Shown: one piece after another, positions 12,607 to 47,300 of the stretch | Position numbering within the stretch: the first letter of the stretch is position 1 | Layout of the letters: each line of letters opens with the position of its first letter | Source of the DNA: an uncultured bacterium | GTDB lineage: Bacteria; Krumholzibacteriota; Krumholzibacteriia; LZORAL124-64-63 | Assembly (NCBI GenBank): GCA_963727525.1 | Contig: CAVSGO010000003.1 | Coordinates: 256,001-320,000 of the forward strand | Direction: 5' to 3' | Length of the DNA: 64,000 nt | Notes under the pieces: model-generated | Databases searched by the model: none | What the model saw: only the letters and a program-made list of their open reading frames with translations | Told to the model about the DNA's origin: nothing | Translations under genes and position numbers: made by a program

Positions 12607-12783
12607 CGACCATTCCCTACGCGACCAAAATCTCCTTGCAAGCCGAGTGCTGATCCGTTCTGGGGCGGATCCACCGCAGCCGCGCGGTCGGGTACCGCGA
12701 TGCCGACCGTCGTATCGCGGTCGGGATCGTTCGGAAGGGTCATGCCGAGCCCACGTCGGGCCGGCGCAGAGAGAGGAGATCCC

Positions 12784-15700
12784 ATGTTCAAAGCAGGAAT
12801 GGTATGTCTCGTGCTCGGCATTGCCGGATTGGCTTTCGCGCAGAGCGCCATCGAGGTCACCGGCGTTGGCGCCGGTGGCGAGTTGCATACGGCCGTCTTC
12901 AATCCGCTGAATCCAGACGAGATCCTGATGGGCGAGGACATGTGCGGCGTGGTCATCTCCTCATCCGACGGTAGCCAGGTCCACTGGTCGCCCTACAACG
13001 AGAACCTCATCAACGAGGACAACCAGGAAACCTCCAACGTCTATGAGATCCACGCGATCGAGAGCAACGGCACCGTGCAATACGTCGCCGCGACAGTCGG
13101 GGGGCTCTACACCCGCTGGGCTGGCCAGACGTCCTGGGTTGCCATGACCTCCACGAACCACTGGTACAACGACGGTTCGACGGGCTTTGACCGGGCGATC
13201 CCATTCTGCTGTATCGACGACAACGGCGAAGGCATTCTGGTGGCAGGCGCGGGTGTGAATCTGCATTCGCGGGCCACCGACACCGAGGATGATTCCAATG
13301 GCGTACGGCTCTACCCCGGTCTGGACGGTACGATCTCGAGTCCGTGGGGAAGCACGCAGTACACCGTCTGGATCAAGGAAGGTGCCGGCGCCACGTGGCA
13401 GCCCTACACCTATGGCTCGACCGAATGTGCATTCGGTGCGGCCCGCGACATCATCATCCGCAAGGTCGACGGCACGAATTACATCATCGTCACCACGGAC
13501 TCGGGAATCTGGATGCATGACATGGGCGCGGGTCCCTGGGTGAATCTGGCCGACCTCGACGCGTACGTCTATGGCGTCCAGCGCGGTCCGCTGCGCCACT
13601 ACGGCTGCTCGGAACCATACTCGGGCGCATGCGGCCTCCATCCCTGGAACCTGTATCTCACCGCACGGGGCACGCTGTACGCGACCCTGGCGCGCAAGAC
13701 ACCTCAGCCCGACTACGACTCCCAGGCTGTGATCTACGCCGGGCTCTACAAGATTCACGACCTCTTCAACACCACCGCGCGCGAGTGGCACTGGGTCGGC
13801 AACGCCACGGCCCTGCCACGCAACGATACCGTCTACACCTGGAATGGGTCGTGGAGCGTGCTCGAAACGCTCAGCCTGGACGTCATCGGCAGGGGCGACC
13901 TGAACTGGGGTGCCCACACGCCGCTGACCTATCCGATCCGCCTGAACGTCCTCGAGGGTACCGGAGCCGACGATGACATCGTCTACCTGGGTTGCGCGAC
14001 CAGCGGTTCCTGCGGTCTCCTGGAAGGGACCGTCGAGTACTCGCCCACCGTCGATTCCAGCACCTGGCGCAGCCTGTTCTACTCGCAGGATGGAATCCCG
14101 TACCAGAGCACGCACGAGCCGATGACCGAGGAGGAGTTCGGCTGGAGCGCCATGCATGGCGTTCGCGTCAACTTCAATCCCGACGTCTACCACGACGGTT
14201 CCGACCTGCGCCTGGTAGTGCAGGCAGGCGTCACGCCGCTCTATTCCGAAGACGGAGGCACCCACTGGCACCAGATCCAGGACCAGTACGACGCGACCTG
14301 GCCCGGAAGTCGAACCCTCGGCTACAACGAGATCTGCGTCACCGGTCTCGATGTCGATGCCGGCGGCAACCTCGTGCTGAGTACCGGAGATTGCGGGCTC
14401 TTCGAGGAGAACGATGGCGGGTTCTTCGAGTATCGCGACGTTCGCTCCTGCGACGGCAGCGACACCTGGGAGGATCCGTGTTACGACAACGCCGAGACCG
14501 GCGCGGTTCAGGTGGCGGCAAACTGGGAGGGTAGCGGCTATCCCGCCACCATTGTCGTCGCCGGCGAGGTCAGCCAGGGGTCGACCGGCTCGCACAAGTT
14601 GCTGGCGCTCGAACACGATGGTACGTGGATTCACGTCACCGCCGGATTGAGCAGCGTCATCACGAATATCGCGGACCTGGATCTCCGAATCGAGGACTTC
14701 ATCGTCGTCGACGGTACGACGATCTACATGGCGTTCGAGACGGATTCCAATTATCCGACGGAGAGCCGCGGTGTGGCGATAGGAGCGTATGCCACCGGCG
14801 GCTGGACGTGGACCATCACGACGGCCGGACTCTCCGGCGATCCCAACCTGTCGCAGCTGCGAGACCTGGAGTATTTCCCCGAGTACGGCCGGTTGTTCCT
14901 GGCGGCCAACACGGGTGTCTGGTTCTACGATCTCAACAATCCGACCTGGATCAATCTGTGTGGTTCCGGTGCTCCCGAACTGGCGCCCTTCAAGGACGTG
15001 CTCTGCCTGGCGCGCGATACCGCCGGTACGCGGCTTTACGCAGGGACTCAAGGTGGCACTGGCAGCGAGATCGGAACCGTGCTCAAGTGCACCGATCCCG
15101 GCTCTTTGCGCCCGTTCCCGGGATTCACGCCGATGGTCAACACCACGGGAACGGGGCGGCCGTTCGGATTCGAGCAACCCGCCTTCTACTATCCGCTCGA
15201 CGATCCCGATCAGTCCCTCACTGCTGTCCACGCGCTGGCGGTCAAGCCTGGCAAACCCAACCAGATCGCCGTGGGAATCATGGTGACCGGGTACGAGACC
15301 CATGGCTTCTTCTCGCAGTGTGGCGTCTACATGTACGGGCGAAACCGCAACTGTCCCACGTGGGAGGAGCTCTACGTGAATACGCCCTACAAGGGGCTAC
15401 CGGTCGCTCATCTGAAGTTCAATAACCTGGATGATGATATCCTGCACGTGGGCCACGCCGGATACGGTGCTGTGAACATCGATCTGGGGCTCGTCAATCC
15501 TCCGGGTTGCGGTGGAGGCGGCGATCCGCAGCTGTGGTTCCGCAGTCAGGGGACGCAGGTCAACACCGACGGACAGGCTGTCTTCGCATTGCGCCTCGAG
15601 CAGTCAGCCGAAGTCTCGATGAAGGTGTACGACGTGCGCGGGCGCCTCGTGTCCCGTACGCACTACGGCGTCCTCGCTGCGGGTCAGCACGAGCTTGCGT

Positions 15701-15807
15701 GGAACGGACGGGGTCAGCACGGAGAACGCGTCGCTTCGGGCGTGTACTTTGCGCGGGTCACGGCCGGTGGCGCTGCCGCGTCGCAACGGGTCGTGATGAT
15801 CAGGTAG
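12784..15807 (+). CDS. Large secreted beta-propeller-like protein with FlgD-Ig/T9SS-like C-terminal domain
   Basis: AGGAG RBS, signal peptide, GAGG/SEDGGTHW BNR-like motif, VYDVRGRLV...WNGR...ASGVYF tail. Confidence 0.75.
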   Translation: MFKAGMVCLVLGIAGLAFAQSAIEVTGVGAGGELHTAVFNPLNPDEILMGEDMCGVVISSSDGSQVHWSPYNENLINEDNQETSNVYEIHAIESNGTVQYVAATVGGLYTRWAGQTSWVAMTSTNHWYNDGSTGFDRAIPFCCIDDNGEGILVAGAGVNLHSRATDTEDDSNGVRLYPGLDGTISSPWGSTQYTVWIKEGAGATWQPYTYGSTECAFGAARDIIIRKVDGTNYIIVTTDSGIWMHDMGAGPWVNLADLDAYVYGVQRGPLRHYGCSEPYSGACGLHPWNLYLTARGTLYATLARKTPQPDYDSQAVIYAGLYKIHDLFNTTAREWHWVGNATALPRNDTVYTWNGSWSVLETLSLDVIGRGDLNWGAHTPLTYPIRLNVLEGTGADDDIVYLGCATSGSCGLLEGTVEYSPTVDSSTWRSLFYSQDGIPYQSTHEPMTEEEFGWSAMHGVRVNFNPDVYHDGSDLRLVVQAGVTPLYSEDGGTHWHQIQDQYDATWPGSRTLGYNEICVTGLDVDAGGNLVLSTGDCGLFEENDGGFFEYRDVRSCDGSDTWEDPCYDNAETGAVQVAANWEGSGYPATIVVAGEVSQGSTGSHKLLALEHDGTWIHVTAGLSSVITNIADLDLRIEDFIVVDGTTIYMAFETDSNYPTESRGVAIGAYATGGWTWTITTAGLSGDPNLSQLRDLEYFPEYGRLFLAANTGVWFYDLNNPTWINLCGSGAPELAPFKDVLCLARDTAGTRLYAGTQGGTGSEIGTVLKCTDPGSLRPFPGFTPMVNTTGTGRPFGFEQPAFYYPLDDPDQSLTAVHALAVKPGKPNQIAVGIMVTGYETHGFFSQCGVYMYGRNRNCPTWEELYVNTPYKGLPVAHLKFNNLDDDILHVGHAGYGAVNIDLGLVNPPGCGGGGDPQLWFRSQGTQVNTDGQAVFALRLEQSAEVSMKVYDVRGRLVSRTHYGVLAAGQHELAWNGRGQHGERVASGVYFARVTAGGAAASQRVVMIR

Positions 15808-21313: not shown

Positions 21314-21559
21314 ATGGCGGGCTATCCGCGACACTGGAATTTCGACGACGTCTACGACTCCGTCGACCGCGGCTGCGGCGATTTCATCATCGACCTGCGT
21401 CAGGTCGTGCGCGAGCTCGAGCCGGGTGCGGTACTGATGATCGCGAGCCGCGACGCCGGTGCGCCCGTGGAAATCCCGGCCTGGTGCCGCCTCACCGGTC
21501 ATACCCTCCTCGATGCTGAGCCTCCGTTCTACCTCGTGCGCAAGCGCGAGGGCACCTGA
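21314..21559 (+). CDS. TusA/SirA-like sulfur carrier protein
   Basis: DRGCG...LEPGAVLMIASRDAGAPVEIPAWCRLTGHTLL...YLVRK; CG instead of canonical CP. Confidence 0.85.
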   Translation: MAGYPRHWNFDDVYDSVDRGCGDFIIDLRQVVRELEPGAVLMIASRDAGAPVEIPAWCRLTGHTLLDAEPPFYLVRKREGT

Positions 21560-21583: not shown

Positions 21584-21949
21584 ATGGCAAGCACATTCTG
21601 CGTCACGATCTCCGAATGCAAGACCAACGGCGACAAGGCGACCCTGGGTTTCGTGGTGGCGAATGCCGCCCTGGGCAGCGACAAGGACACGATGGTGTTC
21701 CTGAGTGCCGATGGCGTGTGGGCCGCAGTGAAGGGCGAGGTCGACAAGATCAATGAGGGCGACCCGTTCGCGCCCTTGAAGGACCTCGTGGAGAAGTTCG
21801 TGAAGAACGGTGGCAAGATCCTCGTCTGCTCGCCGTGCATGAAGAAGCGCGGGCTCACGGAGGCGAACCTGGTGGAAGGCGCGTCACCAGCCGGCGGCGC
21901 GGCGCTCGTGGAGTGGCTGTCCAATGGGTCGCCCAGCGTGGGGTACTAG
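21584..21949 (+). CDS. DsrE/DsrF-like protein
   Basis: VANAAL...VFLSADGVW...GGKILVCSPCMKKRGL (CxxC). Confidence 0.88.
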   Translation: MASTFCVTISECKTNGDKATLGFVVANAALGSDKDTMVFLSADGVWAAVKGEVDKINEGDPFAPLKDLVEKFVKNGGKILVCSPCMKKRGLTEANLVEGASPAGGAALVEWLSNGSPSVGY

Positions 21950-21950
21950 C

Positions 21951-22698
21951 ATGAGCGATCTCGAGAGCCTGCGGCCCGATCACGTGTTCGACGGCGGCGA
22001 TCTCGACTGCGGCAGCGGTCTGGTGCTGCTCATCCGCGAGCACATGCAGAACGGTGCCCGAGGGCGGCGTGCTGGAGATGCGCAGCGTCGAGGTCACGGT
22101 GATCGACGACCTGCCACCTTGGTGCCGCATGGTAGGCCACGAGTACCTCGGCCACCTGCCGGGCCAGACAGCGCAGCAGAAGCGTTACTTCGTGCGCAAG
22201 GGTGGGGGCGAGGCTGCGCGGGCCGAGCAGCAGGCGCTCGAGGACGACAAGGCGCGCGCCCGCGAGTTCGAATGGCGACTGCGGGCGCGCGCGTCCGGCC
22301 ACCTGGCCACCACGGTCTACTGCCGCAACTTCCAGTGGACCCTGGGGCAGTCGGCAAGTTTCGAGGAGACGGACCAGCACCCGTCGGCGGTGGAGGCGCT
22401 GCTGGGTGCCGTCGCCGCCGATCTGGTCACGGGGTTCGGTACGGCGTGCGCCCAGGCCGGTCTCGATGTGGACGACGTGGAGCTCACCATCCGCGGGCGT
22501 TTGCACGATCCCATGGCCTTGCTGGGCCTTTCCGGCGGCGACCCGTCGCTCGCGTCCATCGACGCGAAGCTGTTCGCGTCCACGTTCGATGATGAGGACC
22601 GCGTGCGCGCGGTGTGGGACACGGTGGTGGCGCGTTCGCCCCTGGTGGCCACGCTGCGCAAGGCCACCGCGATGGAAACCAGGATCGCCATCGTCTGA
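21951..22698 (+). CDS. TusA-like plus OsmC-like fusion protein; one extra base near 22050
   Basis: FDGGDLDCGSGLVLLIREHMQ continues in another frame as VPEGGVLEMRS...DDLPPWCRMVGHEY; C-terminal PSAVEALLGAVAADL...RSPLVATL OsmC-like fold. Confidence 0.78.
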
Positions 22699-22709
22699 GG
22701 AGGACGACC

Positions 22710-23861
22710 ATGTTCAACGTGACCCAGGTGGGGAGCTGGCCCCGCTCCCGCGACCTGTTGAAAGCTCTGCGCGCCAAGCAGAAGGGTGGGCTGAGCCGCG
22801 CGGAGTTCGAACGCGTGGCCGACGCGGAGGTGCGTCGCTGCGTGCAGCATCAGGTGGACGCCGGGGTGGATGTGATCGTGGACGGCGAGCACCGTCGCGA
22901 CAACTTCTACAGCTTCGTCACCGACAAGCTCGACGGTACCCGCCTCATGTCCCTCGCCGAGATGCTCGATACGGTGGACGACAAGTCTGCCTTCGAGGAG
23001 ATGCTCTCCACCCTCGACGTACCGGCCTCGGCCATCCGCAACCCCACCTGCACCGGCAAGCTGGCCAGGCGCGAACCGCTGGCGGTGGAGGAGCTGCGCT
23101 TCGTGCAGCAGCTCACGGACAGGCCCGTGAAGGTGACGCTCCCGGGTCCGTACCTGCTCACGCGATCGATGTGGGTGGGCGCGTTCAGCAAGGCCGGCTA
23201 CGGCGACAAGACCGAGCTGGGCGACGACGTCGTGCGCATCCTGCGCGAGGAACTCACCGAGCTTCGCGATGCCGGCGCGGCCTTCGTGCAGTTCGACGAG
23301 CCAGTGCTCACCGAGATCGTGATGAGTGAGGACTGCGACCGCCGCACCTTCATGTGAGCGACGCTTGCGACCCGCCGTGATGCGGGTGCCGAGCTGGAAT
23401 ACGCGGCGGACCTGATCAACCGCATCGTCGAGGGCGTCGACGGGGTGCGCACCGGTGTGCACGTGTGCCGGGGCAACTGGAGCCGCCAGGAGGAGGTTCT
23501 GCTCACCGGAGACTACCACGCCCTGTTGCCGGCGTTCACCGCGATGCAGGTGCGTCAGTTCGTGCTGGAGTACGCCACGCCGCGCGCGGGCGAGCTGCGC
23601 GTGGTGGGCGAGAGCCTGTGCGATCGCGAGATCGGCCTGGGCTGCGTGAATCCCCGCACCGACGAGGCCGAGGACCCGGCCACCATCGTGGCGCGGGCCG
23701 AGGAGGCCCTGCAGTACTGGCGCCCGGAGCAGATCTGGCTGAATCCCGATTGCGGCTTCGGCTGCTTCGCCAACCGCTGCGTGAACGAGGAGAGCCACGC
23801 CGTGGCCAAGCTGCGCAGTATGGTGACGGCGTCGCGGATCTTGCGGGAAAGGCACGGTTGA
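22710..23861 (+). CDS. Cobalamin-independent methionine synthase (MetE C-terminal barrel)-like protein with in-frame UGA, putative Sec216
   Basis: GGAGG RBS; VGSWPR, DGEHRR, KVTLPGP, VQFDEP, TFM-TGA(23355)-ATL, HVCRGN, VLEY, NPDCGF all in one frame, 383 aa. Confidence 0.85.
23363..23394 (+). promoter_or_regulatory. Bacterial SECIS-like hairpin
   Basis: GCTTG-CG-ACCCGC-CGTGAT-GCGGGT-GC-CGAGC; loop starts after 18 nt following the UGA and contains GU. Confidence 0.7.
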
Positions 23862-31334: not shown

Positions 31335-31854
31335 GCGCGTCGTCCTCCTTTCGTCATGAGAGCCTTCGCGTGGGCCCAGCATTCGCGAGATTTGTACGAT
31401 TTTCCAGTGTCCAGACGGCGGCGCGTCCGTCGGCCTGCAGATGATGCGGGATGAATCCCACCGCGGAGTCGGATAGTGCGAGTCCCACCTGGCTCGCGTC
31501 GTCGTTGCGGTCGCCGCGTGGGCGTCGGTCGCACGATGCCGACCGTTGCCTGAATGTGGTGCGTGCGGACATCCCCATGGCCTCCCCCTCGCGCGAGACT
31601 CCATATCCAGCGCGACGCGTCAGACGCGACCGCGTGACCATATCCGATCAAACGGACCGTGACTACAGAACTCTCGCGGGCGGTGGCGCGCATGACCACC
31701 CGCGAACTGGACCGTTTCAATCCGAAACGTTTGCGCAGGCTCGCAAGTCGGCGCAATGCCATGGCATCGCGATCCCAGATATGAGATAATCGCGCTGGCG
31801 CCGGGGATGCCGCCTAGCCTGGGGATTACGCCACGCGAACGAAAGCGACGATCC

Positions 31855-34800
31855 ATGAAGTCCACCCACCGGATCTTCGTGAGGCTGCTGCTTGCAGCGG
31901 CCTCGGTCTCTCTTGCACTGTCTGCCAGTGCGACCGATCAGATCGGGATCTTCTTCGATTCCGAAGGTACCGTGACCACGGCCACCACCACCGCGCCCAT
32001 GCAGGTGCTCACGGCCTACGTCATGCTGATGGATCCGCCGAGCAGCGGGGGCATCACGGGCTGGGAATGCGAGCTCTCCATCCTCACCGATGGGCCCGAT
32101 CCGCAGTTCACATGGACATTGCCACCGACGTCGCTGAACATCGCCACGCCGCCGCGTTTCGCGGTGGGCATCGGGACGCCGTTGCCGGCGGGCCCGCGCG
32201 TTGTGCTCGCCACCGCGACGATCCTCGTGCCGGAGGCGGGCCAGACGATCGACTTCCACATCAGCGCCTACGACCCACCCTCGCTTCAGGATCCGCCGGC
32301 CTCGGGCTATTACCTCTGGCAACCGATCTACAACCACGGCGCGCTGCGCACCCTCGATCCGCTCACCCAGGCGAGCGGCTGCGAGAGCCTGCCCGTCGCG
32401 CGCATCAACCCCGGGGATGATGTGCCGTCGCCGGTTCTGACGGGACCGGCGCGCGTGTGCTTCGACGATGGCGGAGCGGCGTTCCAGGAGTTTGCGGGGC
32501 AGTTCGTCAATCCCACGGATCGGCCGTTCGCGGGCGTGGTGACGATCAGTGGCAACGGATACCAGATCGCGCACGGCGACGGCGCGTACATGACGGAGCC
32601 CACGTGGCTGCATCTGGCCCCCGGCGAGTCGAAGAACCTGCGCGTGTACCTGACCAACGCGCCGGGTACCCCCCAGGTCGGCCAGATCACCGTCACGTCG
32701 TGCGATGGCGAGATCTTCCAGTGCGTTGTGTCCGATGACTGCGCGGGTAGCGCAGACGTGTACTTCGACCCATCCTCGCTCGCGTTCGGGCCAGTGCCGG
32801 TAGGAACGACGGTGTGGCAGCAGAGCGAGCTGATCAACGCCACCGACACGCCCGTGACGATCTCCCTGAGCGAACTCGCGGAGAATCCCGCCTTCGAGAT
32901 CGCGGCACCGCTGGAGTTCGATCTCCCGGCGCTAGGGCAGGCCACGGTGAGTGTCGGGTTTCACCCGCAGGCCGAGGGCGCCACGAGCATGACCGTCGCC
33001 ACCGGCGTTGCCGGAGCCGAACTGGCATGCACGGGCACCGGCCTGCCGTCCTGCGAGCTCATGATGCCGCAGGCCGGATACTTCGGCGTCATCTTCGTCG
33101 GAGACACCGTGACGCAGACCTTCGCCGTGGCGAACACCTCGGCGATCACGATCGCGGGCGACGTCGCCCTGGCGACAACGGGTACCGATTTCGCGATCAC
33201 CGCGGGCGGCGGGCCGTTCAGCCTCGCGCCGGGCGACACGTTACACGGCGAGGTGACGTTCGCTCCGCAGAGCGACGGGCCCCAGGCCACGACGCTGCTC
33301 GCGGGCGCGAACTGCGACATCGATCTCACCGGAACAGGCGTGCCCGTCGTCGAGGAGTGCGCGCTCACGCCGACCACGCTCGACTTCTCCAACGTCGCGC
33401 CCGGCGGCTCCCGCACCCTCGGCGTCACCGTCACGAACACGGGCAACGTACCCCTGGAGATCGCGCCGGTGCCGCCGGCCGCGCCCTTCGCCATCGCGAG
33501 CAACGGGGATCCCGCCACGCTCGCGCCGGGCACGAGCCGTGTGGTCGGCGTGCGCTTCTCGCCCGACGCGGAGGGTCTCTACGCCGGTACTCTGGATCTG
33601 GGCGCCAGTGCCTGCGCGAGCGTGCCGCTCTCCGGAGTGGGTGCAGATCCGGCCCAGCTCGAGCAGGTGGGCGTGTTCTTCGACGCCGACGGCACCCTCA
33701 CCGAGACGACGACGACGGCCCCGGGGCAGGAGGTCACGGCCTACGTCGTGCTGATCAATCCGCACGCGGCGGAGGACATCACGGGCTGGGAGTGCCGGTT
33801 CTCCGTCTTTACGGACGGCCCCGATCCGGACATCCTCTGGGAGGTCGCCGGAAACGGCCTCAACATCGGTACGCCGCCGGCCTTCGCCGTGGGACTCGGC
33901 ATTCCGCTGCCATGGGCGTCGCGCGTCGTCCTCGCCACCGCGCGGATCACGGTGCCGGAGGCGGGGCAGAGCATCGACTTCCATGTCGGCGCCTACGACC
34001 CGCCGTCCCTGCGCCAGCCGCCAGGCTCCATGTACTATCTCTGGCAGCCCGTCTACAACCATGGTCCGTTGCGCACACTCGACCTCATGACATCGGCCAG
34101 CGGGTGCGAGAGTCTGCCGACGGCGCGTATCAATCCTGTCGCCGCCCCCACGGAACCGGCGCTGATCGGCCCGCTGCGCGTGTGCTTCGATGACGCCCTG
34201 GCCGGCGACCAGCCGCTGACGGTTCAGCTCATCAACCCCACCACGGTGCCGATCGCCGCCGAGCTGAGCATGGCGGGAACCGGCCCCCTGCGCGTGGCGC
34301 ACCATGGCGGCGCGCTCACGGATCAGACCACATGGATCCGCCTGGAGCCGGGCGAGACGATGGAACTCCAGGTCGTCCTCACCAATACGCCCGGGCAGCA
34401 CCAGCAGGGCAATCTCGTCGTGTCCACCTGCGACGGCGCCATCTTCACGGTGCCCTACGACGATAGCTGCACCGATGGTGGCGGGCTCTACTTCGATCCT
34501 GATCAGCTCGCGTTCGGCAACGTGACGGTGGGTGCCACGGTCGCGCTGTCCACACCGCTGTACAACAACACGGCGTCGCCCATCGCGGTGTCGCTGAGCG
34601 AGGTCCAGGACAATCCGGCCTTCGTGATCACGCCGCCGCTGGCGTACGAGATCGCCCCGTTCGACAGCGCCGTCGTCACCGTGAACTTCGCCCCCCAGAC
34701 CCTCGGGGCGACGTCCGTGGTCGTCACGACCGGCGCCACCGGAGCCTTGCTGGCCTGCGCGGGTACGGGCACGCCCGCGTGTGCCGTCGGAGCGCCCCAG

Positions 34801-37800
34801 GGTGCCGATTTCGGCGAGGTTCCCCAGGGCACCAGCCTGACGCGCCCCTTCGCCGTGATCAACACGACCGCCGAGCCCATCGCCGGCGACATCGTTCTCG
34901 CCAATGCGAACACGGACTTCACGATCACCCTCGGTGCCGGCGCCTTCGCGCTGGCGCCCGGCGACACGCACCACGTGGAAGTGACCTTCGCCCCCCGGGT
35001 GTACGGCGAACAGACGAACCTGCTGCAAGCCGGCGCGCTCTGCGAGCTGGCGATCACCGGCGTGAGCCACGACTTCACGGGCGCGTGCGAGATCACGCCC
35101 GAGGTCGTGGATTTCGGCGCCGTGCTGGTCGACGTGCCGACCACCCGCGCGCTCACCATCCACAACGCCGGGTCGCTGCCGTTCACCGTCGATCTGCAGC
35201 TCGCGTCACCCGTGTTCTCCATCGTGTCCGGCGGCGGTGTGCACGAGATCGCGCCCAGCGGCAACCTCGTCGCTAGCGTGCGCTGCCTCGCGACCGATAT
35301 CGGTGACTTCACGGCGACCATCGCTGTCGGCTCGCCCTACTGCGCCACCGTGCCCGTGCAGGCATCGGCCGCGCCGCCGACCCCCGACTGCGACTGGAAC
35401 GGCGCCACCGTCGCCGATTTCGGCAACGTGGCCGTGGGGCTCACCACGACGCAGTCGATCGTCTACCGCAACACGGGCAACGTGAGTCTCACGGATGTGA
35501 CCTTCACGGCCCAGGGTGCGGGATTCTCGATCGTGTCGGGTGGCGGTCCGGTGAGCATCCCGCCCGGGCAGACCCAGGACATCACCGTGCAGTTCGCGCC
35601 GGCGCAGCAAGCCGCCTACACCGGAGCACTGGTGCCGAGCACCGACGCCTGCGATCCGCTCCCGCTGCAGGGCGTGGGCGCTCCGCCGCCGCCGCCGGGA
35701 TCGATCCTGATGGCGTTCGATACCAACGGGATCGACACGCGCGCCACGACCACGGCCCCCAACCAGACGGTGACGGCCTACCTGCTCATGGCCGAGTCGT
35801 CCATTCCGGATCTGATCTACGGCTGGGAGTGCACCGTGCAGATCACGACCGGCGGTCCGCAACCGGTCGTCATCTGGGAACTCGCGGGCGTCAACCCGCT
35901 GAACATCGGCACACCGCCGGAGTTCATCGTCGGTCTGCAGTTGCCGATGCCCCACGGCGTCGTCGTGGTACTCGCCACGGCGACGATCGTCGTGCCCGAT
36001 CCCGATAGCGAGATCGAGTTCCGGATCCTCTCGGTGCCGCGTCCGTCCGTCGTGTCGCCGCCGGGATATCCCGTGGAACTGCCCGCGTGGGCCGGCGCGC
36101 CGGGACACATCTTCTCGCTGACGCCGGCGTCCGGCTGCTCCGGCGAGCCGGTGGCCTGGATCAACGACAACGACCTGCCGGTACCGCAGAACATCACCAC
36201 CGACGACGTCGCCGCATTCGGCGCCGTGTCCGTGGGCGGCGAGGCCACGCGCACCGTGACCCTGACGAACAATACCTCCATCACCACGAGCGGCGTGCTC
36301 TCCCTCACCGGCGACGCCTACGCCTTCCGCCACGGCGATGGCGACTGGACCACCGAGCCCGTGTGGTGCCGCCTGGATCCCGGCGAGAACCTCGATCTCG
36401 ACGTGCGCTTCGCGCCCACGGTGTCGGGCCCACAGTTCGGCGACATCGTGCTGGAAGGATGCGGTCCGGTGTTCGCCGCGGCGCTCTCCGGTGGCGGGGG
36501 CGAGGCACCACCTGCCGCCCTCGCACCCAATCCCCTCGAGTTCGGCATCACCTCGTTGAACTCCGGCGTCGAGCACGCCTGCACCGTGACCAATTCGGGT
36601 TCCACGTCACTCGATTTCGCGCCCTTCGTCGTCGAGAGCGACGGCTTTGCGCTCGTGGACGATACGCCGTTCACCCTGCCGGCCGGCGGCAGCCAGGATC
36701 TCGCGGTGCGCTTCTCCGCCACGTCGCCGGGCCTTCATCTCGGCCGCGTGGCCCTTGGCCAGTCCCTCGCGCCGGATCTCCTCGTGCACGGCATGGCCCT
36801 GATCGCCACCGGCGAATGCCTGGTCACGCTCGACGGGAACGGATCCGGCGACTGCGGCAACGTCGTCGTCGGCTATCCCGTCACCCGGGTGGCCACGATC
36901 CTCAACATCGGTGATGACCCCATCGACGGCTTCATCGGCTTCGAGGGCGCCACCGACGTGTTCACGATCACGGACGGTGGCGGCTTCGTGGAACTCGCGC
37001 CCGGCGGGAATCACGAGGTGACGATCGAGGTCGCGCCCCAGGAGCCCGGCGACTACGGCGCCACGCTGGTATCGCTAGGCGGTTGCAGCACCGTCGGGTT
37101 CCACGTGGTGGGACTACCGGCCATCACGGCGTGCGCCGTATCGCCCGTGGCGATCGACTTCGGCGCCGTGATCGTCGACACCACGGCCACGGTCGTCGTG
37201 ACGGTGAAGAACACCGGCACGTTGCCGCTCGACCTCGATCCCGAGCTGCCGGCAGGTCCCTTCGTCATCACGGCAGGAGGCGATCCCGTGGTGCTCGCGG
37301 CCGCGGACTCGGTGCTGGTGCGGCTTGCGTTCACCCCGCCGGCGCTGGAGTCGTACAGTGCCACGCTCACTCTCGGGGCCGATGCCTGCTCGTCGGTACC
37401 GCTATCCGGCTCGGGACGACCCTGGGGCGGGCTCTGCGTGCTCGAGCCAGAGGTCCTCGACGGCGGCACCACGCCGGCGAACATTCCCGTGCTGATCACA
37501 CTGACCGTGCGCAACGAGGGCGAGGACTCGTTCGCCATCGATCCGGTGCTCGACTCGCCGGTCTTCACGCTCATCGATGGCGTGGGGGTGTCCACGATCG
37601 ACCCCGGGTACCAGCGCGCGATCACCGTGCGCTTCGTCGCGGGCGCCCCTGGCGACTACACCGGCGAACTCGACCTGCAAACGGACGGTTGCCCGGTGGT
37701 GCCTCTCATCGCCACGGCCACCGCGCCGGTGGTTGCGTGCGACTGGGGCGGCCTCGAGGATCTCGACTGGGGCCCTCTGCCCAGCGGCGGCATCTACACC

Positions 37801-40302
37801 GAGGTGGTGCACTACCGCAACATCGGCAACGTGCCCCTGCAGGCCGTCACCTTCGCGGTGGAGGGCCCCGGCTTCGCGATCACGAGCGGCGCCGGTCCGG
37901 TCACCATCGCGCCGGGTGGCTCACACTCGATCACGCTCACCTTCACGCCCCTGGACGACACGCCGTACTCCGGCGCGCTCATCACGCCCGTCGGCGGCTG
38001 CTCGGTGCTTCCGCTGCTCGGCGAGGGGCTCGCCACGTCGCCCGGGCTGCTCCTCGATCCCGACCACCTTGCCTTCGGCGCCTCCTGCGTCGGCTCCCCG
38101 CTCACGCAGATGGTGACCCTCACCGCGCTCGGCGCCGTGCCGCAGTTGGTGTACCCACAGATCACCGGCGCCGGTTTCAGTCTGCCGGGCATCGCTGGCG
38201 GCGATTCGCTGATCCTCGCCCCGAACGTGGCCACCCCGGTCACCGTCGTCTTCACTCCGGACGCCCCGGGCAGCTACAGCGGCGAGCTGGCATTCGGCCT
38301 CTTCTATCCCGCCGCCGTGCCTCTCACCGGTTCCGGCGTGGAGCCCCAGGCCATTTGCGTCGTCGACCACGACCTGCTCGATTTCGGGCAGGTGGGCGTG
38401 GGACGCGGCGCCGACCTCTCGCTCATGGTCGGCAACAACGGCTGCGAGCCGCTCACCATCGTCCCGGCCATCACGGGGAACGATTTCGCCTTCCTGTCCG
38501 GCGGGGACGCGGGCGTGCTCGAGCCGGGGACGTCACGCGAGATCGTCGTGCACTTTGCGCCCGACGCCCTGGGACTGTTCACCGGCTCGCTCGATCTCGG
38601 CACCCTGGGTTGTCCGAGCGTGCTGCTGATGGGTGAGGGCATCGAGATCGTCTACGATTGCTACACCTTGCCGGCGTATCTCAACGTGGACTTCCTACCG
38701 GTGGGCCACACGCGTCTCGCGTCGTTCGTCATCTACAATGGCGCCACCGCGGCGGTGTCGCTCAACGTGAACGACGTGCCCGACCGTGCCACGGTTGTGT
38801 CCGGCGGTGGCGCCATCACCGTGCAGCCGGGCCAGACCCACACGGTGTCAGCCCAGTTCGGGGCGTCCGTGCTCGGCGAGACGATCTGGGACTGGGATTT
38901 CGGTCTGGATTGCCGCCCGCTCACGGTCATCGTCTTCGGCGCCAACCAGATCTGCCACGTCGCGCCCGCGTATCTCGATTTCGGCACCGTGCCGCTCGGC
39001 GGTACGGCGGAGCGCAACTGGGTGGTGTCGAACCCAGGCATCGAAGGGCTCATGTACGATCCGCAGTGCGACGATCCGAACTATGTCGTCGAGCCCGATG
39101 CGCCGCAATCCCTGCCGCCGGGCACGTACTTCAGCGGGGCCGTGCGCTTCTCTCCGCAGACGGTGGGCACCCACGACGTGGAGCTGGTCTTCAACCATCC
39201 CACGTCCTACCCCATCGATCTGCTCGGCATCGCGACCGCGCAGATCGCGCTGAAGCGCTTCGACCTCCCGAGGCTGGAGTTCGGCCCCGTCGGCCCGGGC
39301 GAGACGCTCACACGCGCCTGCGTGCTAATCAACGATGGAACCGACCCGCTCACCGGCACCATCGCACTGGCCAACCGCGATTTCCGCGTCGTCGAGGGCG
39401 CAGGTAGCGTCACGGTGCCGGCTGGCGGTCGGCATACGGTGCGGGTGCGGTACACGCCGCAAACCACCGGCGAGCACATGGCGACCATCGTGCTCGAGGG
39501 CACCGACCTCGAACCCGTCGCCCTGCTCGGCCGCTGCCTCGTGACCGATCCCGACAGCAACCGTGTGACCATCGTGTGGGACGACGGCATCGCCGCGATG
39601 GACGCGGCGAGCGATCTCTTCGGCGAGCGCGAGCTGACCGGGCGCCTCGTGCTGCGCCAGCCCACGGCCGTGGGCGGCGTGTTCGCCTGGCAGGGCCGTC
39701 TCCTCGCCACCGGCGACGGACACTTCGCCTCGTGGCAGTACGCCGCCGGCGCCGCGAACCGCGCCGAGGCGCCCACCTTCGAGGTGGTCGCCAGCGGCGT
39801 GATCCCGCCGCCCACGGAAGAGATCACGCTGGCCACGTTCCACTACGTCGTCCCGGCCGGCGGCACGGCCGACTTCGCGCTGGCCGCCGTCGCCGGCGAG
39901 GAGGTCGTGGGCTGGCCCGCGTGGTTCGACGCCTCGGCGCCTGACTCCGCCCTCGTCGCCATGACCACCGACGGCTCGCACCTGCTCGCGACGATCCGCC
40001 CGGACGGTCACCAGACCTTGCCCGGACTCGTGCGCCTGCACGCGCCATACCCCAACCCGTTCAACCCCATGACCACCGTGGCCTTCGACCTGGGCGAGCC
40101 CGGCCACGCCCGCCTCGAGATCTTCGACCTCATGGGCCGCAAGGTATGCTCGCTCCTGGACGCCGCGCTGCCCGCCGGCCGTCACGAGATCGTGTGGCAG
40201 GGCGTGGACGACGCCGGCCGCACGGTGGCGAGCGGCGGCTATCACGTGCGGCTGACGGCGGGAGGCAAGACGCAGACGCGCAAGCTCACGTTGCTGAAGT
40301 AG
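31855..40302 (+). CDS. Giant (about 2815 aa) secreted surface protein with many ASH/PapD-like Ig repeats and FlgD-Ig C-terminal domain
   Basis: Signal peptide; repeated LDFG.V.VG...N.G...F.P...L.G.G units; PNPFNPMTTVAFDL...WQG.DDAG...LTLLK tail. Confidence 0.88.
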   Translation: MKSTHRIFVRLLLAAASVSLALSASATDQIGIFFDSEGTVTTATTTAPMQVLTAYVMLMDPPSSGGITGWECELSILTDGPDPQFTWTLPPTSLNIATPPRFAVGIGTPLPAGPRVVLATATILVPEAGQTIDFHISAYDPPSLQDPPASGYYLWQPIYNHGALRTLDPLTQASGCESLPVARINPGDDVPSPVLTGPARVCFDDGGAAFQEFAGQFVNPTDRPFAGVVTISGNGYQIAHGDGAYMTEPTWLHLAPGESKNLRVYLTNAPGTPQVGQITVTSCDGEIFQCVVSDDCAGSADVYFDPSSLAFGPVPVGTTVWQQSELINATDTPVTISLSELAENPAFEIAAPLEFDLPALGQATVSVGFHPQAEGATSMTVATGVAGAELACTGTGLPSCELMMPQAGYFGVIFVGDTVTQTFAVANTSAITIAGDVALATTGTDFAITAGGGPFSLAPGDTLHGEVTFAPQSDGPQATTLLAGANCDIDLTGTGVPVVEECALTPTTLDFSNVAPGGSRTLGVTVTNTGNVPLEIAPVPPAAPFAIASNGDPATLAPGTSRVVGVRFSPDAEGLYAGTLDLGASACASVPLSGVGADPAQLEQVGVFFDADGTLTETTTTAPGQEVTAYVVLINPHAAEDITGWECRFSVFTDGPDPDILWEVAGNGLNIGTPPAFAVGLGIPLPWASRVVLATARITVPEAGQSIDFHVGAYDPPSLRQPPGSMYYLWQPVYNHGPLRTLDLMTSASGCESLPTARINPVAAPTEPALIGPLRVCFDDALAGDQPLTVQLINPTTVPIAAELSMAGTGPLRVAHHGGALTDQTTWIRLEPGETMELQVVLTNTPGQHQQGNLVVSTCDGAIFTVPYDDSCTDGGGLYFDPDQLAFGNVTVGATVALSTPLYNNTASPIAVSLSEVQDNPAFVITPPLAYEIAPFDSAVVTVNFAPQTLGATSVVVTTGATGALLACAGTGTPACAVGAPQGADFGEVPQGTSLTRPFAVINTTAEPIAGDIVLANANTDFTITLGAGAFALAPGDTHHVEVTFAPRVYGEQTNLLQAGALCELAITGVSHDFTGACEITPEVVDFGAVLVDVPTTRALTIHNAGSLPFTVDLQLASPVFSIVSGGGVHEIAPSGNLVASVRCLATDIGDFTATIAVGSPYCATVPVQASAAPPTPDCDWNGATVADFGNVAVGLTTTQSIVYRNTGNVSLTDVTFTAQGAGFSIVSGGGPVSIPPGQTQDITVQFAPAQQAAYTGALVPSTDACDPLPLQGVGAPPPPPGSILMAFDTNGIDTRATTTAPNQTVTAYLLMAESSIPDLIYGWECTVQITTGGPQPVVIWELAGVNPLNIGTPPEFIVGLQLPMPHGVVVVLATATIVVPDPDSEIEFRILSVPRPSVVSPPGYPVELPAWAGAPGHIFSLTPASGCSGEPVAWINDNDLPVPQNITTDDVAAFGAVSVGGEATRTVTLTNNTSITTSGVLSLTGDAYAFRHGDGDWTTEPVWCRLDPGENLDLDVRFAPTVSGPQFGDIVLEGCGPVFAAALSGGGGEAPPAALAPNPLEFGITSLNSGVEHACTVTNSGSTSLDFAPFVVESDGFALVDDTPFTLPAGGSQDLAVRFSATSPGLHLGRVALGQSLAPDLLVHGMALIATGECLVTLDGNGSGDCGNVVVGYPVTRVATILNIGDDPIDGFIGFEGATDVFTITDGGGFVELAPGGNHEVTIEVAPQEPGDYGATLVSLGGCSTVGFHVVGLPAITACAVSPVAIDFGAVIVDTTATVVVTVKNTGTLPLDLDPELPAGPFVITAGGDPVVLAAADSVLVRLAFTPPALESYSATLTLGADACSSVPLSGSGRPWGGLCVLEPEVLDGGTTPANIPVLITLTVRNEGEDSFAIDPVLDSPVFTLIDGVGVSTIDPGYQRAITVRFVAGAPGDYTGELDLQTDGCPVVPLIATATAPVVACDWGGLEDLDWGPLPSGGIYTEVVHYRNIGNVPLQAVTFAVEGPGFAITSGAGPVTIAPGGSHSITLTFTPLDDTPYSGALITPVGGCSVLPLLGEGLATSPGLLLDPDHLAFGASCVGSPLTQMVTLTALGAVPQLVYPQITGAGFSLPGIAGGDSLILAPNVATPVTVVFTPDAPGSYSGELAFGLFYPAAVPLTGSGVEPQAICVVDHDLLDFGQVGVGRGADLSLMVGNNGCEPLTIVPAITGNDFAFLSGGDAGVLEPGTSREIVVHFAPDALGLFTGSLDLGTLGCPSVLLMGEGIEIVYDCYTLPAYLNVDFLPVGHTRLASFVIYNGATAAVSLNVNDVPDRATVVSGGGAITVQPGQTHTVSAQFGASVLGETIWDWDFGLDCRPLTVIVFGANQICHVAPAYLDFGTVPLGGTAERNWVVSNPGIEGLMYDPQCDDPNYVVEPDAPQSLPPGTYFSGAVRFSPQTVGTHDVELVFNHPTSYPIDLLGIATAQIALKRFDLPRLEFGPVGPGETLTRACVLINDGTDPLTGTIALANRDFRVVEGAGSVTVPAGGRHTVRVRYTPQTTGEHMATIVLEGTDLEPVALLGRCLVTDPDSNRVTIVWDDGIAAMDAASDLFGERELTGRLVLRQPTAVGGVFAWQGRLLATGDGHFASWQYAAGAANRAEAPTFEVVASGVIPPPTEEITLATFHYVVPAGGTADFALAAVAGEEVVGWPAWFDASAPDSALVAMTTDGSHLLATIRPDGHQTLPGLVRLHAPYPNPFNPMTTVAFDLGEPGHARLEIFDLMGRKVCSLLDAALPAGRHEIVWQGVDDAGRTVASGGYHVRLTAGGKTQTRKLTLLK

Positions 40303-44132: not shown

Positions 44133-44351
44133 CGACGATCTCGAGTTCGCCGAACACGGCGTGACCGCGTCGACAATCATTGCGATTTCGTAACAAGCCA
44201 GTGCGGGCAGTCGTCGCTTGGGGTGATAGTCGATGTTCACTCGCATCTTCTCGTGACAGACCCACGACTCCGGCGTCGATTCGTGGTAAAATGGATGTCT
44301 TGTGGCCTGTTGGGTCGAGGTCACTACCTGTCCCGATAGAAGGTGGAGTCG

Positions 44352-47300
44352 ATGATGCCAAGGCTGAAGCTGGTCGTGCCGATACTCGTGCTCGTCGCGT
44401 GTGCGCTGCCCGTTCTCGCAGCGGACGACGCGACCCAACCACTGTCGCTCTCGCCGCGTGGCGAGGTGGCGCCGCCGGTCGTCAAGGTGCTTGCGCAGCG
44501 ACCGGGTGCGATGTCGCTCGAGCTGGATGTCACGAGTCTGGATGTGGCGGACGTCACCATCGACGGCCGCGCCTACCAGGCCATGACGCTGACGGACGGT
44601 GGCACGCTGGGCGAGCCCGGCGAACCGATGCTGCCCACTGTCACACGCCTCGTGGCCGTGCCAGCGGGCGTCGGCGTGCGGCTGACCGTGACCGGCAAGG
44701 ACATGGCGCCACTGCCATCCACGTCGCTCGCACCTGTGCAGCCGGTTCTGGATGGTTCGCGCGGTGAAGCGGCACCGGTCGCCACGGCCAGCGTCTATGC
44801 AGCCGCGCCACGTCGCGAGGCCACAGCCAGCGTGGGCGAGCCGGCTCTCGTGCGCGGTATACGCGTGGTGCCGGTGACATTCTCCCCCGTGAGCTACGAC
44901 CCGCGCACGGGCGAGCTCGCCGTGGCGCGCACGCTCACCGTGGATCTCACCTTCGCGGGCCGCGATACGCGCAATGACCCGACCGGCGCGCCCCACGCGA
45001 TTCCCGAGTCCTTCGCCCGCATGTACGAGCAGGAGATCATCGGCTACGAGCGGTCCGGCGACGTGGCCGAAGGGCCGGGCAGCTACCTGATGATCTGCCC
45101 GAGCGATCCCGCCGTGGTGGCGGCCGTGCAACCGCTGGTCGAATGGCGCCGGCGCCAGGGCTACAACGTCGTCCTGGCCACCACGGCCGAGACCGGCACC
45201 ACGACCACCACCATCAAGGACTATATCCAGAATGCCTATGACACGTACGATCCGCCGCTCGAGTTCGTCAGCCTCGTGGGCGACGGCGCGGGTTCCTTGA
45301 GTCTGCCCACCTTCCACGAGTCTCTCTCGGGATACAACGGTGAAGGCGATCACCCGTACACGCTGCTGGATGGCAACGACCCGCTGGCCGACATCCACAT
45401 CGGCCGCATCTCGGTGACCAGCGTCTCCGAGCTCCAGCTGGTGATCGCGAAGATCGTGCAATACGAGAGCGATCCCGACATGAGCGAGACGAATTGGTTT
45501 ACCACCGCCGGCGTGACGGGAGATCCCTCCGCATCGGGTTACAGTACGGTGTGGTGCCAGCAATTCGTGAAGGAGTCCCTGCAACATCTGGGCTACACGC
45601 GTGTCGATACGATTTTCGGCGGCGACTATGCCACGCAGATGTTCAACACCATCAACAACGGCGAGACCCTCTTCACCTATCGCGGCTACATCGGGATGAG
45701 CGGATTCAACACGGGATACATCACCGCGCTCGGCAACCAGCGGCAATTGCCGTTCGCCATCGTGATGACCTGTGGCACGGGTTCGTTCGCGAGCGAGACC
45801 ACGTGTCGGAGCGAGGCTTTCCTGCGCGCCACCAACGGTGGTGGTGTGGCCGCCATCGGCACGGCCACCACCGGCACCCACACCCGCTACAACAACTGCA
45901 TCTTCCTGGGTACGGCCCACGGCGTGCTAAACACCGGCGAGTACCGCGTGGGCCCCGCGCTCACGCGCGGCAAGCTGAACCTCTACAAGAACTACGAGGT
46001 GAACGAGCCCGACCGCGTGGTCATCTGGTCTTACTGGAACAACCTGATGGGCGATCCGGCCACGGAGATCTTCACGGGCGTGCCACAGATTCCCACCGTT
46101 ACCTATTCCGCCAACGTGGCCAGCGGCGCCAACGCATTGCCGGTGACGGTGGCGGTGGGCGCCGCTCCGCTCGCCGGCGCCCGGGTCACCGTCGTTCAAG
46201 CCGGAAACCTGCGCGCCACCGGCACCACCGATGCGGCCGGCCAGATCGTGCTGCCGCTCGCCGGTGCCGTGGACGGCGTGCTCCAGGTCACCGTGACGAA
46301 ACACAACCTCAAGCCCTATCTCGGTTCGTGTACGATGGGTGCGGTGAGCGCGTCTCTCGACTACTCGGCGCTCCAGGTGTCCGAGAGCAGCGGCAACGGC
46401 GACGACGTGGCGAACCCGGGCGAGTCGCTGCTCCTGAACGTACAGCTCACGAACCATGGCGGCAACTCGCTGAGCGGTGTCGTGGCGACGTTGAGCTGCC
46501 CGCTGTCTTACGTGCACATCACCGCGGCCACGCGCTCGTTCGGCACGTTGGCCGGCGGCGCGTCGGCGTGGAGCCAGGGTACCTACGCGCTTGGCCTCGA
46601 CGTCGACGCACCCGGCGGCAGGACCATCCCGCTGCGCCTCGATGCCACCAGCGGTGCGCAGACGTGGACGAGCCTGGTGGACCTCGATGTCACCGGTCCG
46701 CGCGCCACGATCGCGTCGCTCACCTACGGCGGGCCGGGTGGGACCCTGGATCCCGGCGAGTCGGGCACAATCGTGCTCACGCTCACCAACGACGGCAATC
46801 TGGCCACGAGTGGCGCCACGGCCACGCTTCTGTGCGACAGCGATTGGATCACCGTCGGCGACCCGAACGGCGCCTTCGGAGCCATACCACCCGGTGGCAT
46901 GGGGGCCCAGACCAATTCGTTCACCGTGAGCGTGACGACGGACTGCTATCCTGGCCATCTGGCGAACTTCCAGGTGGCGTTGCAGTTCGCCGAGGGGGGC
47001 GTGGATACGCTCGAGTTCCAGGAAGTGGTCGGCACCTCGCAACCAGGCGACCCCTCTGGTCCGGACATGCACGGCTACTACGCCTTCGACAACGAGGACA
47101 CCGACGTCAACGCGCCCACGTTCGCCTGGTCCGACATCACCGCGCTCGGTCAGAACACCGGTATCGTGGACAACAGCCTTTACGACGACGACACCAAGAC
47201 CTTGGACCTGCCGTTCACTTTCGTGTTCTACGGCAAGCCGCAGAACAAGGTCTCGATCTGTTCGAATGGCTGGCTCGCCTTCGGTACCACGTACCAGCGC

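Follow-up and report, generated by a model that had tools for sequence, protein, structure and literature searches.

A MetE-like protein family with a probable selenocysteine at an in-frame UGA codon, encoded in an operon with sulfur carriers

A 64,000-nucleotide stretch of DNA from an uncultured Krumholzibacteriota bacterium (contig CAVSGO010000003.1 of assembly GCA_963727525.1, positions 256,001 to 320,000; referred to here as the window) carries at 22710-23861 a gene for a MetE-like protein that is interrupted by an in-frame UGA at codon 216. Comparison of this gene with its relatives makes it highly probable that the UGA is decoded as selenocysteine (Sec) through a downstream hairpin of the selenocysteine insertion sequence (SECIS) type. 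We are equally confident that the gene represents a genuine, widespread selenoprotein family, of which we found no report. It lies in an operon whose other members encode TusA-like, DsrE-like, and TusA/OsmC-like proteins, and a role of the family in selenium or sulfur handling is plausible.

The in-frame UGA and its counterparts in other genomes

The reading frame begins with an ATG at 22710 and extends for 215 codons to the UGA, after which it continues for 167 codons to a terminal TGA at 23859-23861. The TGA at 23355-23357, in the context TFM-TGA-ATL, is the single internal stop in 22710-23861, and the list of open reading frames (ORFs) under translation table 11 splits the gene there into 22614..23357 and 23445..23861. 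An earlier note on this DNA, made by reading the sequence, had described the frame as continuous across TFM-TGA-ATL and had placed every zinc ligand 3' of the UGA. Both descriptions were borne out, since the only other stop is the terminal one and H251, C253, E287, and C348 all come after codon 216. The predicted full-length product, of about 43 kDa as estimated from its 383 residues, is strongly supported by the sequence.

The protein search space comprised 5.8 billion proteins, and motifs were counted in the 120 full-length homologues listed. Thousands of full-length relatives of 380 to 400 amino acids were found, with identities of at most 72%. Cysteine occupied column 216 in 24 of 25 aligned full-length homologues, the exception being P0002, which is without six residues at this place, and the motif TFM-C-AxLA was present in 117 of the 120. 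When the N-terminal 215-amino-acid piece was used as the query, the best 120 matches were all 215 to 225 amino acids long and 80 to 93% identical to it, and all 120 ended in [RK]RTFM; the named entries among them were called MetE, "methionine synthase II," or "hypothetical protein." In the representative search, P0127, P0163, and P0249 also terminated exactly at ...RRTFM. The closest relatives therefore all stop at codon 216, and they exceed every Cys form in similarity to the window gene. The earlier note had stated, without verification, that related proteins have FMC at this site, and it had proposed a search for Cys/TGA pairs at this column; the statement was correct, and such pairs were found.

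Two database proteins depart from this pattern. P0002, a protein of 377 amino acids from a JGI metagenome and, at 71 to 72% identity, the most similar full-length database protein, is without exactly RTFM-[C/U]-A; the gap could be a real deletion or the product of an annotation that skipped the stop. P0216 (222 amino acids, 36% identical) ends in ...RSFY at the same alignment column, which suggests a second, divergent subfamily with a stop, possibly Sec, at the codon-216 column.

Genome contigs were scanned with the DNA pattern R-T-F-M-TGA-A-[TA]-L-A, in which TGA was fixed as the only codon sought at the site. The pattern holds about 38 bits, and about 4 chance matches would be expected in the 596 Gb scanned on both strands if uniform base composition is assumed. 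At least 119 loci were found, and 118 of the 119 listed are MetE-like genes with TGA at the codon-216 column; the remaining locus, L027, was set aside as an unrelated chance match. The sequence ...DEP[VI]LTE... precedes the TGA in 116 of the 118 MetE-like loci, with L040 and L077 broken upstream, and H[VI]CRGNW follows it in frame in all 118, with the frame between the two halves never shifted. All three zinc motifs were reached before the next stop or the contig end in 111 loci. The 167 codons downstream of the TGA are under clear purifying selection, with the zinc motifs intact.

These loci come from at least 118 species-level genomes in over ten phyla. The host groups are Planctomycetota, Thermodesulfobacteriota, Verrucomicrobiota, Acidobacteriota, Bacteroidota, Chloroflexota, Eisenbacteria, Krumholzibacteriota, Latescibacterota, Gemmatimonadota, Calditrichia, Armatimonadota, and others, and the cultured hosts include Desulfobulbus alkaliphilus DSM 24258 and Desulfopila aestuarii DSM 18488 (Desulfobacterota). 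Three loci look damaged: L036 has a stop 48 codons past the UGA, L040 has stops a few codons before RTFM, and L077 has unrelated sequence upstream. This damage probably reflects assembly problems or decay in those metagenome-assembled genomes (MAGs).

A tree of 126 rows (55 Sec forms, 66 Cys forms, and 5 outgroups) was built with FastTree, a quick method from which only coarse points are taken. In this tree, 53 Sec forms and one Cys form grouped together (support, 88); the sister of this group consisted of 36 Cys and 2 Sec forms, and the two groups were joined with a support of 100. At least 4 interchanges between Sec and Cys are required on this tree. Branching inside the Sec group broadly tracks phyla. 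The nearest relative of the window gene is L020, from a MAG labeled "bacterium," which is 88% identical and also has TGA.

The hairpin downstream of the UGA and the reading of codon 216

The 5' arm ACCCGC (23370-23375), the loop CGUGAU (23376-23381), and the 3' arm GCGGGU (23382-23387) form a hairpin at +15 to +32, counted from the UGA, with 12 nucleotides (nt) between the UGA and the stem, 18 nt between the UGA and the loop, and a G at loop position 2. In fdhF, the hairpin lies about 11 to 12 nt after the UGA and has a G in its apical loop. When the 45 nt starting at the UGA were folded, the hairpin was part of the minimum free energy (MFE) structure (-19.3 kcal/mol; z score, -2.13), with 7 of 200 shuffled sequences folding as well. 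Since the GC content of the DNA is 66.5%, thermodynamics alone is weak evidence here, and support for the hairpin comes from comparison across genomes.

That comparison showed strong constraint. The exact sequence ACCCGC-CGUGAU-GCGGGU follows the UGA in 46 of the 118 listed loci, and most of the others differ at two loop positions alone, the third being U or G and the sixth U or C. A test of synonymous sites was carried out on 103 full-length Sec genes with 81 conserved columns, using the DNA of Sec forms alone. Hairpin codons 221, 225, 222, 226, and 223 ranked 1, 2, 3, 5, and 7 of the 81 for lowest third-position entropy (0 to 0.90 bit, versus a median of 1.67), and the chance that five named columns would all fall within the lowest seven is about 8e-7. 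The Thr, Leu, and Ala codons just 5' of the hairpin vary freely. Across the 6-bp helix, 95.1% of 696 cells can pair, compared with 28 to 49% when the 3' partner is slid by 1 to 3 columns. Two double-sided compensatory changes were seen, A-U to G-C in L011 and C-G to A-U in L066, together with ten G-U wobbles, seven of which arise from Ala-to-Val changes of GCG to GUG that keep the pairing. The strong conservation of the helix leaves little room for covariation, and the case rests mainly on the constraint at synonymous sites. The hairpin as the earlier note had proposed it, with the same arms, a loop beginning after 18 nt, and a distance typical of a SECIS, thus stands with exact coordinates and with selection at synonymous sites added.

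Seven Bacteroidota loci (L010, L016, L036, L085, L101, L111, and L066) have ATRSDAD, ATRSDAG, or ATRSDSG in place of ATRRDAG. In six of the seven, the common hairpin is absent, and a longer, different hairpin folds at about the same distance; L066 (ATRSDSG) retains the common helix through its compensatory change. In the window, the 45-nt fold also contains a lower stem that pairs +8..+12 with +35..+39. It was dropped as a part of the SECIS because relatives do not conserve it: for each of four of the five pairs, only about 20 to 55% of sequences allow pairing, and the fifth (UA) never varies.

Several observations weigh against decoding of the UGA as Sec. No selA, selB, selD, or tRNA-Sec gene was found within the 64-kb window, so that Sec decoding in the host organism is an assumption. 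When 66 nt from the UGA were folded, a different structure won, and it was no better than those of shuffled sequences (z score, -0.34; 71 of 200). The hairpin codons also encode a conserved TRRDAG, and some Cys forms, such as P0003, keep RRDAG; part of the nucleotide conservation could therefore come from constraint on the protein. An Rfam scan of 23300-23450 at E values up to 10 returned chance-level matches to snoRNAs and small RNAs and no SECIS family. Lastly, the TusA/OsmC-like fusion gene directly upstream (21951-22698) has one extra G near 22051-22052 relative to seven relatives, which breaks it into pieces of 33 and 214 codons; the database copy of this protein has 206 amino acids, and full-length homologues have about 248. 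The frameshift may have arisen in the assembly or may mark genuine decay of an operon partner; in either case, the assembly or the operon is not flawless in the window.

The UGA could be a true stop, leaving a split gene or a 215-amino-acid N-terminal fragment with the zinc part translated separately or never. Public annotation treats it in this way: the fragments that make up the best 120 database matches end at it, and a C-terminal piece, P0209, is called from a start just after it; the lack of Sec machinery in the window points in the same direction. However, an Ala codon (GCN) comes directly after the UGA in 119 of 119 sequences, and no conserved start or ribosome-binding site is present; the halves stay in frame in every MetE-like locus listed, and homologues are single chains with Cys exactly at codon 216. 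Termination would part S9, E60, and D196 from all four zinc ligands, and, although the scan sought TGA as the sole codon at the site, a conserved hairpin at SECIS distance would have no role in a split gene. A true stop is thus very improbable. The frameshift in the adjacent gene gives some reason to suspect that a TGC or TGT Cys codon was turned into TGA by an error of sequencing or assembly or by a recent inactivating mutation (a pseudogene), but the same TGA is shared by the at least 118 independently assembled species-level genomes, isolates included, which excludes these explanations for practical purposes, and both the selection on the downstream codons and the TGA of the 88%-identical L020 argue against them as well. 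Evidence from the frame alone cannot tell which residue is inserted, and the UGA might be read without Sec-tRNA, by near-cognate Trp or Cys read-through or under a reassigned code. Global reassignment was rejected because TGA terminates neighboring operon genes and the MetE-like gene itself. The homologues, moreover, have Cys at the column and not Trp or Gly, and in the Bacteroidales MAG L016 the operon is bordered by selD and a gene for the C-terminal part of SelB. Well-known users of Sec are found among the host phyla, which also counts against a non-Sec reading, and we regard such a reading as scarcely credible. Decoding of codon 216 as Sec is the reading carried forward below.

Active site, operon, and possible function

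A match to PF01717 (Meth_synt_2) spans residues 4 to 375 across the TGA (E value, 5.6e-33; 115 bits versus a cutoff of 21). In a profile search of PDB sequences, H251, C253, E287, and C348 aligned with the His/Cys/Glu/Cys zinc ligands of MetE. These four residues are invariant in an alignment of 26 sequences, as are S9, E60, and D196, which correspond to S433, E484, and D599 of MetE and all lie 5' of codon 216. The roles of these residues, as zinc ligands and as the Ser, Glu, and Asp that bind homocysteine, are those given by Price et al. 2021 (PMC7857596). The sequence suggests that the enzyme would still bind a homocysteine-like amino-acid thiol or selenol at its His/Cys/Glu/Cys zinc site. 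The protein does not belong to canonical MetE (TIGR01371/PRK05222), which has two domains, one of them N-terminal and folate-binding, and about 750 amino acids: it has 383 amino acids and scored 101.6 bits versus a cutoff of 929.95 and 103.8 versus 541. In NCBIfam release 20, it had only subcutoff matches, to several methionine-synthase models, and no model claims it. Its membership in a distinct clade of "core" MetE-like zinc enzymes, which are without the N-terminal domain, is strongly supported.

An AlphaFold2 model built from 26 sequences had a predicted local distance difference test (pLDDT) score of 87.1 and a predicted template modeling (pTM) score of 0.89. The best Foldseek matches were MetE 4ztx (E value, 1.9e-19; template modeling [TM] score, 0.73) and the core enzyme MesD 3rpd; superposition on these two structures gave TM scores of 0.69 to 0.73, normalized to the query, and the identity to solved structures in Foldseek was just 19 to 23%. 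The RTFMCAxLAxR segment (...KRTFMCAALAARK...) is an insertion that falls in an alignment gap relative to MetE 4ztx in the profile search of PDB sequences, and the insert with Sec/Cys216 is likewise unaligned to 3rpd. Residues 208 to 213 and 216 to 221 have pLDDT values below 50 in the otherwise confident model. Because the insert has no MetE counterpart and a low pLDDT, Sec216 is assigned to a loop that is specific to the family and has no defined place in the model. This loop is located between strand 192-196, which contains D196, and helix 225-240; the helix in turn runs into strand 247-252 with H251 and C253. By the topology of a triose-phosphate isomerase (TIM) barrel, this order would put the loop on the catalytic face.

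Two further cysteines are possible redox partners of Sec216. C114, within NPTC, is invariant in the alignments of both Cys forms and Sec forms and is absent from MetE and from a distant relative in Paracoccus. Of the best 120 Sec-form fragments, 81 have a Cys at position -7 from Sec (C209), a residue that none of the aligned Cys forms shares.

The MetE-like gene is the last of four genes on the same strand (Table 1), in the order TusA-like, DsrE-like, TusA/OsmC-like fusion, and MetE-like. With tblastn, the TusA-like gene was found directly upstream of the Sec gene in 97 of the 118 listed loci, the DsrE-like gene in 92, and the TusA/OsmC gene in 104, and most loci without upstream matches are cut by locus ends. 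The cysteines of these proteins are strongly conserved: C21 in 97 of 97 TusA-like matches and C58 in 96 of 97, C82 and C85 in 91 of 91 aligned DsrE-like matches, and C20 in 96 of 96 and PPWC in 94 of 95 fusion proteins. Clustering of all ORFs of the listed loci revealed no conserved neighbor beyond the four operon genes. The DsrE-like and OsmC-like proteins were rejected as candidates for the selenoprotein of the operon because both are Cys forms; no TGA was found at a conserved Cys of either in 91 to 104 loci, and a single "*" was seen, at a nonmotif Cys of the DsrE-like protein in one locus.

Table 1. Positions of the predicted selenoprotein gene, its signals, and its operon partners in the window
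Feature	Position	Strand	Remarks
MetE-like coding sequence, predicted selenoprotein	22710..23861	+	core methionine-synthase-like, PF01717; 383 codons plus terminal TGA
UGA codon 216, read as Sec (probable)	23355..23357	+	aligned with the conserved Cys of TFM-C-AxLA
GGAGG ribosome-binding site	22699..22703	+	6 nt 5' of the ATG; directly after the stop codon of the upstream gene (22696-22698)
Upper hairpin of the putative SECIS	23370..23387	+	encodes T-R-R-D-A-G; in the MFE fold of 45 nt
Extended stem, window only	23363..23394	+	lower arms 23363-23367 and 23390-23394 around the conserved hairpin; 45-nt fold
TusA-like sulfur-carrier gene, first of the operon	21314..21559	+	81 amino acids
DsrE-like gene	21584..21949	+	121 amino acids; C82-S-P-C85 motif, Cys form
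TusA-like/OsmC-like fusion gene	21951..22698	+	frameshifted in the window; intact (about 248 amino acids) in relatives

Genes for selenium metabolism adjoin the operon in a few genomes. In L016 (1-2960), the C-terminal part of SelB (PF25461), YedF (TIGR03527; 199.5 bits versus a cutoff of 110), and SelD (TIGR00476; 370 bits versus 125) are encoded directly upstream. L111 and L066 likewise have selD upstream, L030 has trxB there, and in L079 a YedF-like gene follows closely downstream. Among plasmid sequences, relatives had identities of at most 43.5%. One such distant relative is present on plasmid pFER4 of Paracoccus ferrooxidans (L120; CP038202.1, 357-8571), where a 43.5%-identical Cys-form enzyme (SFM-C) has a TusA domain fused to its N terminus. 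The gene order there is sufS, tusA, dsrE, two unknown genes (168 and 522 amino acids, with no Pfam or NCBIfam match), the fusion gene, selA (TIGR00474; 565 bits), and trxB. The selA gene of pFER4 is not adjacent to selB.

The mechanism that we prefer, from context and only tentatively, is a sulfur/selenium relay through residue 216. In such a relay, residue 216 would swap sulfane sulfur or selenium, as a persulfide or selenosulfide, with cysteines of the co-operonic TusA-like, DsrE-like, and TusA/OsmC-like carriers and would bring the sulfur or selenium atom to the zinc-bound substrate or remove it from there; the operon would then be a sulfur/selenium-trafficking module and not a plain methionine synthase. 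Sec/Cys216 is likely to be essential, because it is conserved even in relatives with 36 to 44% identity, and the operon and the natural TusA fusion make communication between it and TusA-type carriers probable. Against the relay stands the rarity of selenium genes beside the operon, with selD in 3, a full-length YedF match in 2, and trxB in 1 of the 118 listed loci; these links, in a handful of loci and one distant relative, do not prove a selenium role. A second possibility, real but still doubtful, is that Sec216 is a redox switch or protective residue, forming for instance a selenenylsulfide with C114 or C209; the enzyme would then be a folate-independent methionine synthase of the ordinary kind, with its methyl donor encoded elsewhere. 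The intact homocysteine-binding and zinc residues would fit this, as would the invariance of C114 and the frequent Cys at -7, and most known selenoproteins are redox proteins according to PMC13188914. Yet the Paracoccus homologue keeps C216 and not C114, and C209 is missing from the Cys forms that were aligned. The gene, moreover, has no link to a corrinoid protein, MesX (DUF1852), or a folate-binding domain, and its sole conserved partners are sulfur carriers, one of which is fused to the enzyme in Paracoccus. Sec216 might instead, as the earlier note had suggested, be a methyl acceptor, one that is transiently Se-methylated while it relays methyl between zinc-bound homocysteine and a methylated compound of sulfur or selenium. 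The enzyme family catalyzes methyl transfer to zinc-activated thiols, and in PMC10418091, UroD-superfamily methyltransferases near sel genes were proposed to demethylate methyl-selenium compounds. This role is nevertheless unlikely: we judge on chemical grounds that a methyl selenoether would be a poor methyl donor, and what the conserved partners carry is persulfides, not methyl groups. To return to the sulfur/selenium relay, its widest form, in which the operon constitutes an unrecognized trafficking pathway with the loop Sec as the catalytic chalcogen-transfer residue on a homocysteine-like substrate, possibly recycling seleno-amino acids toward SelD, is a speculative possibility. If it were true, the protein would be the first selenoenzyme of the MetE/UroD superfamily and would open a new route joining methionine-type chemistry to selenium supply.

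Comparison with known systems and other features of the window

The family shares the PF01717 fold and the zinc and homocysteine residues with MetE and with the core methionine synthases MesA to MesD, as these are described in PMC7857596, and like the core Mes enzymes it has about 380 amino acids and no folate-binding N-terminal domain. Unlike MetE, it has the loop insert with Sec/Cys216; unlike MesA to MesD, it is accompanied by the TusA/DsrE/OsmC operon in place of a corrinoid-protein or MesX neighbor. Among the 74 ORFs of the window, no Pfam domain of a corrinoid protein (as for MesA, MesB, and MesC) or of MesX/DUF1852 (as for MesD) was found, the Mes profiles themselves not having been compared. 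PMC7857596 contains 0 occurrences of "selenocysteine," reports no Sec in any Mes family, and does not mention TusA or DsrE.

Established selenoproteins whose SECIS lies in the coding region, such as FdhF, resemble the MetE-like family in the pairing of UGA and Cys forms, the downstream hairpin, and the repeated interchange of Sec and Cys. In contrast to the Sec of FdhF, that of the MetE-like family is additional to the metal ligands and is not itself a metal ligand; the hairpin of the family is also short (6 bp) and almost invariant across phyla, unlike that of FdhF. A further likeness is to YedF, a sulfurtransferase-like protein of selenium metabolism, in which the domains that the operon encodes as a TusA-like protein and a DsrE-like protein with CxxC are fused and which has been linked to SelD by genome context (PMC5322559). 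Whereas YedF combines TusA/SirA with a DsrE domain containing CGxC, the TusA-like and DsrE-like proteins of the window are the products of separate genes, and TIGR03527 gave no match to 21314-21556 or 21584-21946. Selenoproteins of DsrE-like and OsmC-like families are included in Table 1 of PMC13188914; members of both domain families are also encoded in the operon, here as Cys forms, and the OsmC part of the fusion weakly matches NF041052, "OsmC-related (seleno)protein" (16.6 bits versus a cutoff of 95).

PMC13188914, a review of May 2026, provides an inventory of 119 prokaryotic selenoprotein families and subfamilies that its authors call the most comprehensive. Its Table 1 and text contain no PF01717, MetE, methionine-synthase, or homocysteine-methyltransferase entry. 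The table includes the families of Haft & Gwadz 2023 and Haft & Tolstoy 2025, and no row cites Deng et al. 2026. The main texts of deep-Sep, BSepDB, and the 2022 review have 0 occurrences of MetE, methionine-synthase, or homocysteine-methyltransferase terms. A search of the full-text literature found no Sec-containing MetE or homocysteine methyltransferase and no such operon, with a listing in supplements, in BSepDB, or in Deng et al. 2026 being possible. The suggestion in the earlier note that the family is new held up, as it is absent from the 119-family inventory and has no specific NCBIfam model.

The family is unusual among bacterial selenoproteins in its zinc alkyl-transfer enzyme fold and its fixed sulfur-carrier operon, and it adds a metal-enzyme family without a thioredoxin fold to the prokaryotic selenoproteome. 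The gene occurs in at least 118 species-level genomes, and the nearest 120 database entries are all fragments, a recurrent annotation error that recognition of the family corrects. The strict operon, the TusA fusion, and the selA, selD, and yedF neighbors together suggest that these "methionine synthase II" proteins do not perform textbook methionine synthesis. The cultured hosts Desulfopila aestuarii and Desulfobulbus alkaliphilus make the family directly testable.

Elsewhere in the window, three very large proteins with the FlgD Ig-like domain (PF13860) are encoded on the forward strand at 12700-15807, 31756-40302, and 44343-49484. The domain is C-terminal in two of them; in the third, a protein of 2848 amino acids with HYDIN/ASH-type Ig repeats, it gives a below-cutoff match near the C terminus. 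One of the PF13860 proteins is a C25 peptidase and carries a Por secretion tail as well. These proteins, which are unrelated to the selenoprotein, suggest a type-IX-like secretion lifestyle of the host.

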